A stretch of DNA of 64,000 bases, taken from the NCBI RefSeq assembly GCF_018350175.1, contig NC_058385.1, positions 83,142,001 through 83,206,000 on the forward strand. Reading direction: 5' to 3'. Below, piece by piece: positions 36,201 to 39,200 of the stretch. Below the pieces are notes generated by a model, which saw nothing but the letters and a program-made list of their open reading frames with translations, had not been told where the DNA came from and made no database searches. The stretch's first letter is position 1. Every line of letters starts with the position of its first letter. The DNA comes from Felis catus (taxonomy: Eukaryota). Position numbers and translations under genes: made by a program.

Positions 36201-39200
36201 CGAGCCTCTCTAAGGCGCCCCTCTGCCAGTGCTTGCTCTCCTGCTGGGCCAGAGCCTCATCCTCACTGAAGGCGCGCACCACAGGCCCAGGCATGGGCAG
36301 AGGCACTGCCCCATCGCTCTCATAGCCTGAGCCGTCCTGCTGGGAGTCCCAGCTGCCTCTCTGCTTCGTGTGAAAGCGGGCCTGCTGTGCCTCCCAGGCC
36401 AGCCGGGCCTGCGCCAGAAAGGGCTCAGCCTCGCCAGTCTTGCCCTCTGCACGTTTCACTGGGGCCAGGCCGGGCCCACACAGGGGCCGCTCTTCAGCTG
36501 GGGGCTGCTCAGCGAGGAGGTCACGGTCCCCGGGGACTTCGGTGGACGAGGCGCTGGGGACATGGCACAGAGAGGGGTTCCTGCTCTTCCTCTTGCGGGT
36601 GCCCGGGGAGTAGCCTGTTGAGGACATGGTGTCCTGCTGGCTGGACCAGGACATAGCATCGTCTTGATGCCGCAGCTCAGGCCCCTCCATACTGCTGTAG
36701 TCCCCAGAGGAGACCCCCAGGCGCTGATCCCGCAGCAGGCAGGGGCTGGGCTGCAGGGGCAGTGAGCCACCCCCGGGATTGGGTGCATACTTGTTCCTTG
36801 GGCCTGCACGCAGCTTGGGGCTTGAGCTGGCCTGCTCCACGTACACCAGCTGCCGCACGTATTCCTTGCCTGCAGGGCTATACTCCAGGCTCAGGAAACG
36901 CTCAGGGCACTTCTGCCTGGTCAGCACCAGCTGCTGGTAGGGTGAGGCGGAGCCCTGCTTGGGTGACTGTGGGAAGGGTGCTGGTTTGCGGCCTGGAGAC
37001 CGCTGGGGTGAGCCAGCTTGATAGCCCCCGCCAGCCTCGTACTGGACGTCCATGGGCGGCTCATCATAGATAGGAGCCTGGTACTCCACGGGAGGCTCCT
37101 CGTAGAGGGGGGGCTCATAGGCGTAGCGTGGGGAGGAGGGCTGCGAGTCGCTGGTAGGCTTGCGTGGCTGGGCCAGCAGCGGGGAGCAGCTCCCCAGCTC
37201 GGCCCTCTTCAGGAAGGGTGATGGCCTCCGCTCAGGGAAGAAGACGGGGCCATCAGATTCTGAGGCAAACGTCTGCAAGCTGGGTGAGTGCTGCCCACCA
37301 GAGGGTCTGCGGGAGCGGCCGCCAGACTGGCTGTCTAGGGCATAGCCATTGCCCTGGGAGGAGAGGAAGCTGGGCTCCCGGTCCGCAACTTTGATGAGCA
37401 TACGCTCCTTGGTGCCTGAGTTCCACCGAAGTGAGGAGGTCCTGGGGGGGGGGAGGGGGACAGGCACAGGTTACCTGGGGGAGGTTCTGGGTGGGTGGGG
37501 CACAGGCACAGGTTTTCTGGGGGGAGGTTCTGGGGGGGGGACAGGTTTCCGGGGGAAGGTTCTGGGTGGGTGGGGGTACAGGTACAGGTTTCCTGGGGGA
37601 GGTTCTGGGTGGGTGGGAAGACAGGCACAGGTTTCCTGCGGGGAGGTTCTGGGGGGGGGGGACAGGCACAGGTTTCCTGGGGGAGGTTCTGGGGGGGGGA
37701 CAAGTTACCTGGGGGAGGTTCTGGGTGGGTGGGTGGGAGGACAGGCACAGGTTTCCTGGGGGAGGTTCTGGGGGGGGGAGGTCAGGCACAGGTTTCCTGG
37801 GGGAGGTCCTAGGTAGGGGGACAGGCACAGGTTTCCTTGGGGGAGGTTCTGGGGGGGACAGGTTTCCGGGGGGAGGTTCTGGGTGGGTGGGGGTACAGGC
37901 ACAGGTTTCCTGGGGGAGGTCCTGGGGGGGGTGTCAGGCACAGGTTACCTGGGGGAGGTTCTGGGTAGGGAACAGGCACAGGTTACCTGTTGGGGAGAGG
38001 TGGAAGTTTGGCCCAGCTATCAGCCTGAACCATTACCTGCCAGTCTCAGCCTCATAGGTATCTGGGGTCATGGCCCAAGAGGTCTGGTCATTTCTCAGCG
38101 TCCTCCTCACCTCCTAAATGGGAGCTTCAGGCTTCAGGGGCCTGATACTTGCCGGGGGGGCTTCTCTGTAAATGACCTGTGCACGCTTCATTGCTGGGGC
38201 CCTGACTCCTGGGCAGTGCAGCCTAGAGTGGCTGTGCTCCTGTCCTGGGAGGTCCCTGCACATAGCTCCTAATACAGCCCTGCAGCCTTCCCCTCCAGGG
38301 GGCTCTCCTGCCCAGACAGCTTCCCCCAGGCCCGCCTCCAACTCTGGTACCCATCATGACATTCACTACAAGGGCTTCTGTGTGTGCATCTCTGCCCTGG
38401 TCCCACCCCAGCACTGGGCACAGAACTATTTCTACAACAGATAGCCAGGGTGGTCCTTCCAGTGGCCTAACTCTGGATTCAATATGGTTATCTCTCTGTA
38501 GGCCTCACTCCTGGGTTCAGTACCTGCCTGTGCTCCTATGGGGTGGTGGGCCACCTATCACCGCCCCCCCCCCCGCCCCCAGCATCTCAGGTCCTGTTTT
38601 TCAACCACACTCCCCTCCTACAACTCTGCCCTCACCCATAACATTCTGCACCTAGGCACAGATGAGAAAACTTTCTATAGCACTTTTAGGTTCCCAGCAG
38701 CACGGAGGGGAAAGTACACACACTTCACATATACCCCCTGCCCCCACTCGTGTGCGATCTCCCCAGCTGTCAGCATCCCCGCCAGAGTGGTACCTGCGTC
38801 CCAGTCAGTGAACGGACACGGGTACCTGATCGTGATGCCTCGTCAGCAGCCGGCATCCACAGTTTACCTCAGGGCTCGCTCTAGGCCCGAACGTTCTGCG
38901 GGTTTGGACAGACGTGTAATCCGTGTGCCCGATACCGAGAGTGTCACACGGAGTAGCTTCACCGCCCTGAATCCTCTGTCCGTCCCGTCCCCCCGGCCCC
39001 TGGCCCCCACTCGTCTTTTACCGTCTCCACGGTTTTGCCTTTTCCAGAATGTCACAGACTTGGAATCGTACCGTGCGTAGCCTTTTCGGACTGGCTTCTT
39101 TTACCTCGTAATATGCATCTAGGGCCCCTCCAGGTCTTTTCACGGCTCGACAGCCCGTTCCTACTTAGTGCCGACCCACATCCCGTTGTCTGGATGGACC

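Follow-up and report, generated by a model that had tools for sequence, protein, structure and literature searches.

The window analysed here, a 64,000-nt stretch of cat DNA, encodes ARHGAP39 of Felidae on its minus strand, and its exons reproduced residues 27-1102 of the cat/lynx protein P0121 letter for letter. Protein mapping placed a coding exon of 1324 nt at 36118..37441 (minus strand; amino acids 201-641 of P0121). Its 441-aa translation showed 100% identity to a puma model, and the exon is identical in the puma, cat and lynx models. The preceding exon, of 84 nt, lies at 43306..43389 (minus strand) and ends in the donor CAG/GTAGAA, where the slash marks the splice junction; it was located by the protein map and a spliced RNA contig. 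Between the two lies an intron of 5864 nt; its donor follows 43306, and its terminal AG has its last base at 37442. A preliminary description of this DNA had proposed the same splice junction in front of a 1.3-kb coding exon, and both were confirmed. The TSS(L) start of the large exon was common to most mammalian models examined, which suggests that the exon predates the repeat described below. Ten residues of the seal protein, around aa 458 of P0121, are missing from the cat/lynx large exon. Further into the intron, at window 38900-42270, lie what look like a pair of carnivore SINEs and part of a LINE-1 element, and the preceding intron holds a degenerate AT-rich tandem repeat with periods of 17 and 39 (window 46752-46889).

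The 3′ end of the 5864-nt intron is occupied by a GC-rich minisatellite (37435..37986, minus strand; rich in G runs on the plus strand) of 14 units of 31-47 nt, defined by TRF, core splitting, shuffles and G4Hunter. TRF returned overlapping arrays over 37448-37989, the best row having a period of 159, 3.4 copies, 86% matches and a score of 771. Splitting at the core AAC[C/T]TGT gave 13 upstream units and a terminal unit running into the exon. The units follow the formula G[T/A]AACCTGTGCCTGT, a C-rich tract, CAG and [A/G]ACCTCCCCCAG; spelled from the start, the order is G[T/A]AAC, CTGTGCCTGT, the C-rich tract, CAG and [A/G]ACCTCCCCCAG. Each unit corresponds to the last ~35 intron bases plus the first 6-7 exon bases, including a branch-point-like TAAC. 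As in junction-type minisatellites, the units run head to tail, unit 14 spans 37442/37441, and the splice-site sequence is reiterated in the intron, here in degenerate form. Local alignment to the 40-nt junction scored 10 of the 13 upstream units above all 1000 doublet shuffles; for the three short units, 2, 9 and 12 of the 1000 shuffles did as well or better. Elsewhere in the window, none of 4221 tiles exceeded a score of 31, whereas the ten best units reached 35-51. The TRF arrays, the unit structure and these alignments bear out the earlier proposal that tandem copies of the ARHGAP39 3′ splice junction lie at this place.

Preservation of the units was uneven. The exon-like hexamer ACCTCC followed the unit-type AG in 12 of the 13 upstream units (ACCTTC in the other), and YAG plus ACCT was kept in all 13. 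The unit sequence first reported was accurate in this AG/ACCTCC part; exact AACCTGTGCCTGT, however, was found in only seven of the 13, GCCTGT was missing from three, and GTAAC remained in three. The two upstream units said to keep AG/GACCTCC intact do so, with the AG ending at 37922 and 37809. The array had been credited with about a dozen decoy acceptors; most units in fact hold two AGs, and upstream AGs total 25. The units also carry elements beyond those first described, namely the branch-point-like TAAC and, in four units, a donor-like CAG/GTAAC. Units 1, 2, 8 and 14 start with GTAAC, which can be read both as a branch-like TNA motif and, when preceded by CAG, as a donor-like site; the remaining ten start with GAAAC or AAAAC and have lost both. 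When compared at nine positions with the U1 donor consensus, CAG/GTAAGT, the four donor-like sites matched at 7-8, as against 6-7 for five native donors.

The higher-order period of 159 nt equals about four units, and close mutual matches were found between units 2 and 6, between 3 and 11, and among 4, 8 and 12. This pattern indicates multi-unit duplications. The G4Hunter mean of the array was 1.47, with 40 runs of at least three G; a value of 1.2 was reached by only two of 635 window tiles. Such G-run richness is associated with minisatellite instability. On the 5′ side, the flank (37981..38024, minus strand) reads as an acceptor-like CTGAT...CTTCCACCTCTCCCCAACAG followed directly by GTAACC, a recursive-site motif. 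The flank ending in CTTCCACCTCTCCCCAACAG is similar to the tail of the unit as well as to the beginning of the exon, and ACCTC is common to them.

The authentic 3′ splice site lies in unit 14 (37442..37474, minus strand; feature table and spliced RNA contig), with the A of a branch-like TAAC at -30 and CAG/G at the junction. The sequence before it is free of AG for 31 nt. Positions -23 to -4 contain one purine at this site, against 3-6 at all 25 other AGs. The branch U has been lost from 10 of the 13 unit-type decoys, and a TNA at -18 to -40 was found only for the decoys at 37961 and 37922. The real site alone combines a run of 17 pyrimidines, a single purine in -23 to -4, G at +1 and TNA at -30. 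Its tract is nonetheless C-rich, with 3 U in 20 compared with 5-14 in eight native acceptors, and so the real acceptor is not obviously strong. C-rich acceptors are described, in the available part of one report, as a class activated by the poly(C)-binding proteins alphaCP/PCBP (PMC4797308).

Splicing was then read from RNA assemblies, raw reads and protein models. In RNA run X15, one contig of 1943 nt and depth 24 aligned to 37150-37444 and carried 26 loose letters equal to window 43309-43334, which identifies the junction 43306 to 37441. The preliminary description had suggested looking in RNA for junctions from 43306 into 37443-37990; the one spliced contig recovered uses 37441. X15 is a single gut metatranscriptome in which the intron is also present, at depth 25, and hence is uninformative on retention. 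The raw runs X24 (3 reads, all of them off the junction) and X21 (0 reads) are too shallow for minor-junction counts. Across these three runs, two of them nearly empty and the contigs of a kind that drop rare forms, no joint or loose end was found inside the array. Upstream of it by 50 nt, the minus strand carries a donor-like CAG/GTAATG at 38036 (window 38031-38081). Two sense-strand reads of X24, a poly(A) run, lie partly on about 38039-38081, their remainder being unlike the stretch they were compared with; they may represent a minor exon or noise.

Twelve felid protein models were compared, a sample from a main cluster of which 15 of 97 members were covered; none of these 12 contained an insert, whether RTSP or Pro-rich, and 11 read LLHYR/TSSLRW. 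The twelfth, the puma model P0001, skips the small exon. In it KEESS is joined straight to RWNSG, omitting the 84-nt exon and the first large-exon bases (37441-37428). The join falls where the window has no AG, and the exon at 34610-34049 is missing from P0001 too; the assembly behind this model probably has a gap or a variant at the place. In P0162 (dog), P0010 (rhinoceros), P0022 and P0032, differing upstream exons are joined to the same TSSLRW acceptor, which places alternative splicing here on the donor side. The translated array was compared with sets of 1779 and 686 candidates and had no match at E ≤ 0.001, which is weak evidence for so low-complexity a query.

Enumeration of reading frames showed what use of a decoy would entail. 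When joined to the upstream exon, none of the 25 upstream AGs left the frame open through the large exon, nor did any of the 21 on a possible allele shorter by 79 nt (see below). From in-frame upstream acceptors, translation ends at a TAA within one of the GTAAC copies, no later than 37473, where a TAA in the exon's frame (37471..37473, minus strand; ORF list and frame enumeration) lies inside unit 14. Because this last TAA is in unit 14, the in-frame stop would be met whatever the copy number, and a simple acceptor shift could yield no in-frame Pro-rich insert. Such inserts, which the preliminary description had envisaged, were ruled out as products of simple upstream acceptors for the window's array and for the possible shorter allele; frameshifts, which it also mentioned, and premature stops would result. 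The long ORFs it had seen through the array exist (226 and 148 aa), but both run in the exon's wrong frames and end at 37253 and 37335. A leak to any decoy would give a truncated product, which would probably be degraded.

The frame can be kept only by way of the donor-like sites inside the array, as cassette exons or zero-length steps. Those enumerated were zero-length steps at 37987, 37949 and 37709, micro-exons of 12 nt (RTSP), and cassettes of 201 and 213 nt. The first candidate micro-exon, 37960-37949 (feature 37943..37961, minus strand), encodes RTSP and is followed by the donor-like CAG/GTAACC at 37948. The second, 37720-37709 (feature 37703..37721, minus strand), is followed by the donor-like CAG/GTAACT at 37708 and falls within the 79 nt that a DNA contig of run X8 lacks. 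Splicing through 37474 would leave an intron of 33 nt, which is too short for splicing.

The copy number of the array was examined in DNA-type runs. Words sampled from 36118-38100, of which 26% were internal to the array, were present at 0.97-0.98 in 10 DNA-type runs from four studies (four possible-source runs excluded), and no run contained all words (best 0.98). Runs X19 and X20, with word shares of 0.20-0.22, carry no evidential weight. A contig of 423 nt from X8, the one among 14 DNA-type runs whose contigs were aligned, spanned 37463-37964 without mismatch and skipped 79 nt (37660..37738), two units' length, including the donor at 37708. It is one contig of one DNA run, with a depth of 5.6 against 25-32 in the flanks, and the skip is bounded by a 41-nt exact repeat, longer than the 31-letter assembly word. 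The skip may plausibly represent a shorter, 12-unit allele, or else an assembly collapse. The word share of 0.97 in 12 of 14 DNA-type runs agrees with the 0.965 predicted by an allele 79 nt shorter, an agreement that is no proof since the missing words are not named, and the low-depth array contigs of X15 are compatible with both alleles. The window contains seven N gaps of 128-187 nt (16931-17059, 27906-28049, 31219-31568, 63394-63983), none of them within 5 kb of the array.

Taken together, these data make it likely that the array is a near-neutral minisatellite born by slippage at the splice junction, and that the spliceosome uses its last copy. The sequence supports a derivation from an amplified intron end and exon start. 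In this respect the earlier picture of an amplified pyrimidine tract, AG and exon start is supported, with the exon-like part being only 6-7 bases; the functional idea attached to it is weakened by the premature stops behind all 25 AGs. A brief match, ACCTC, that the intron flank (38001-37997) shares with the beginning of the exon may have seeded the first duplication. Growth would then have proceeded by multi-unit duplication, aided by the G-quadruplex-prone DNA. The last copy would be chosen because no other combines a long, uninterrupted run of pyrimidines with a branch motif at -30; the complete exon that follows may also favour it, through enhancers and exon definition. The decoys would be at a disadvantage from branch U residues that are mostly lost (GTAAC to GAAAC) and from tracts interrupted by A. 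A mammalian orthologue was sought in metagenomes, where the one locus found among 598 candidate stretches had 40% identity and is no orthologue.

It is unlikely, though worth considering, that the array is a length-dependent modulator of splicing whose copy number sets the dose of ARHGAP39, as for ABCA7. Decoy AGs, or poly(C)-binding proteins bound to the C tracts, would divert transcripts into premature-stop forms or into skipping of the 1.3-kb exon. Premature stops do follow from all 25 upstream AGs, the real tract is of the C-rich, alphaCP/PCBP-activated kind as far as that class is set out in the text available (PMC4797308), and a 12-unit allele may exist. The ABCA7 VNTR offers a precedent, with retention of one unit and a frameshift, and with exon skipping, in the accessible part of its report (PMC5954066). 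Use of a neighbouring pseudo-site in CBS, 6-16 and ABCA7, as given in partial accounts of these genes, counts against the near-neutral minisatellite. Set against this, no decoy junction was found in the RNA (at low power), the branch motif is missing from most decoys, and the evidence for polymorphism is a 79-nt skip between exact repeats that exceed the assembly word. In F7, moreover, unit deletion left splicing unchanged, according to the available section of that study (PMC1557585).

A role of the array as a recursive-splicing or micro-exon module is distinctly improbable. On the recursive route, splicing to AG/GTAAC at 37987, 37949 or 37709 would regenerate a donor, the remaining 545, 507 or 267 nt would be removed, and a normal mRNA would result; on the other, in-frame cassette exons of 12 nt (RTSP), 201 nt or 213 nt would be included. 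The motif Y5+N0-4YAGGT fits 37987, 37949, 37709 and 37475, the only such sites in the 5864-nt intron; 37987 has CTGAT at -34, and in-frame cassettes can be enumerated. Recursive splicing also occurs in introns with a median of 3.4 kb, in the part of a lariat study at hand (PMC10156609). The motif is common, however, with 12 sites in four other introns of ARHGAP39 (30.5 kb), and the same partial source gives 202,395 putative human sites against 100 of high confidence (PMC10156609). The donor at 37708 is missing from the X8 contig, the GT has been lost in 10 of 14 units, and neither an RTSP nor a Pro-rich insert appears in any of the 12 felid models. The three RNA runs, two with only 3 and 0 reads, showed no joint or loose end at 37987, 37949 or 37709. 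Were this reading correct, a distinctly improbable outcome also in its fullest form, expansion would have turned a latent AG/GTAAC, formerly just ~33-45 nt away from the acceptor and at that distance unspliceable, into a spliceable sub-intron of 267-545 nt. The array would then be a self-correcting decoy field in which recursion rescues mis-splicing to the AG/GTAAC copies. Neighbouring copies would supply in-frame micro-exons encoding RTSP, or else a Pro-rich cassette of 67-71 aa, to a WW-domain RhoGAP, and these forms would be switched on or off between cats as two units are gained or lost. A minisatellite would thereby create new splice routes by distance change alone.

Very improbable is an alternative origin, likewise neutral, in which the flank AG at 37987 was the ancestral acceptor and the array arrived as an insert bounded by GT...AG, bringing with it a new acceptor at 37442. 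The flank does have all the parts of an acceptor (CTGAT as branch, pyrimidine tract, CAG/G), and the 545-nt array starts with GT and ends with AG. Such an insert requires an outside source of units and simple duplication requires none; no source was found in the rest of the window, and the unit pattern had no match in genomic contigs or viral contigs, sets with few or no mammals. Lastly, the array is not an assembly artefact: the N gaps in the window, the incomplete word shares and a unit number perhaps overstated by two lend that reading next to no probability, and it is largely refuted by the presence of 0.97-0.98 of the words, array-internal ones included, in 10 runs of four studies, by the 423 nt of array covered in X8 with zero mismatches, and by units that are diverged rather than identical.

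Junction-spanning minisatellites are already a described class, of which the ARHGAP39 array is an ordinary example; Zhuo and colleagues have reportedly dealt with introns from tandem arrays. The locus itself was undescribed in the literature searched on acceptor-side cases and on ARHGAP39 in cat, where coverage of subscription journals is thin. The human F7 intron 7 VNTR, with 37-bp units, belongs to a class in which the end monomer spans the exon-intron boundary, together with 6-16, CBS IVS13, LAMIN B2 and PDGF IVS4, as listed in the available part of that report (PMC1557585). The same portion states that in the donor arrays of F7 IVS7, LAMIN B2 and PDGF the authentic site is the only one used (PMC1557585); in some members the next one or two sites are used besides it, as far as two partial sources go (PMC1557585, PMC5954066). 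Like this class, the ARHGAP39 array has tandem units of 30-100 nt, a terminal unit that is the real junction, splice-site copies in the intron and use of the authentic site. Unlike it, with its identical donor-side pseudo-sites downstream, the cat array lies on the acceptor side, has degenerate decoys upstream that are transcribed first, and carries a donor-like site as well in some units. Pseudo-sites of the F7/CBS class are normally silent and become usable upon loss of the authentic site; for ARHGAP39, one spliced contig shows the authentic site in use. Copy number varies among individuals in the class, and here the corresponding observation is the 79-nt skip of a single contig (depth 5.6, 41-nt exact flanking repeats).

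The human ABCA7 intron 18 VNTR, with 25-bp units, is likewise C-rich and junction-spanning, and splicing at an adjacent copy shifts the frame and leads to a premature stop; it lies on the donor side with a measured effect of length on splicing and disease, in the section available (PMC5954066), whereas the ARHGAP39 array is on the acceptor side and known from sequence. Boundary tandem repeats in human duplicated genes share with it the expansion of a minisatellite at a junction that elongates the intron, and differ in often having repeat-retaining alternative transcripts, in the accessible text (PMC2812944), of which none was seen for the cat array. The FAM20C VNTR also elongates an intron by expansion at a junction, the side of which is not stated in the part available (PMC5941971). 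The recursive-site motif Y5+N0-4YAGGT, as given in partial text (PMC10156609), fits four array sites, all within 545 nt of the real acceptor. The ARHGAP39 array is of use as a natural mammalian test of acceptor choice. In the donor-side models, as far as their partial accounts go, the first site wins. In ARHGAP39, splicing bypasses 13 upstream copies and settles on the last, an outcome that speaks for exon definition and branch-point quality rather than for scanning on a first-come basis.
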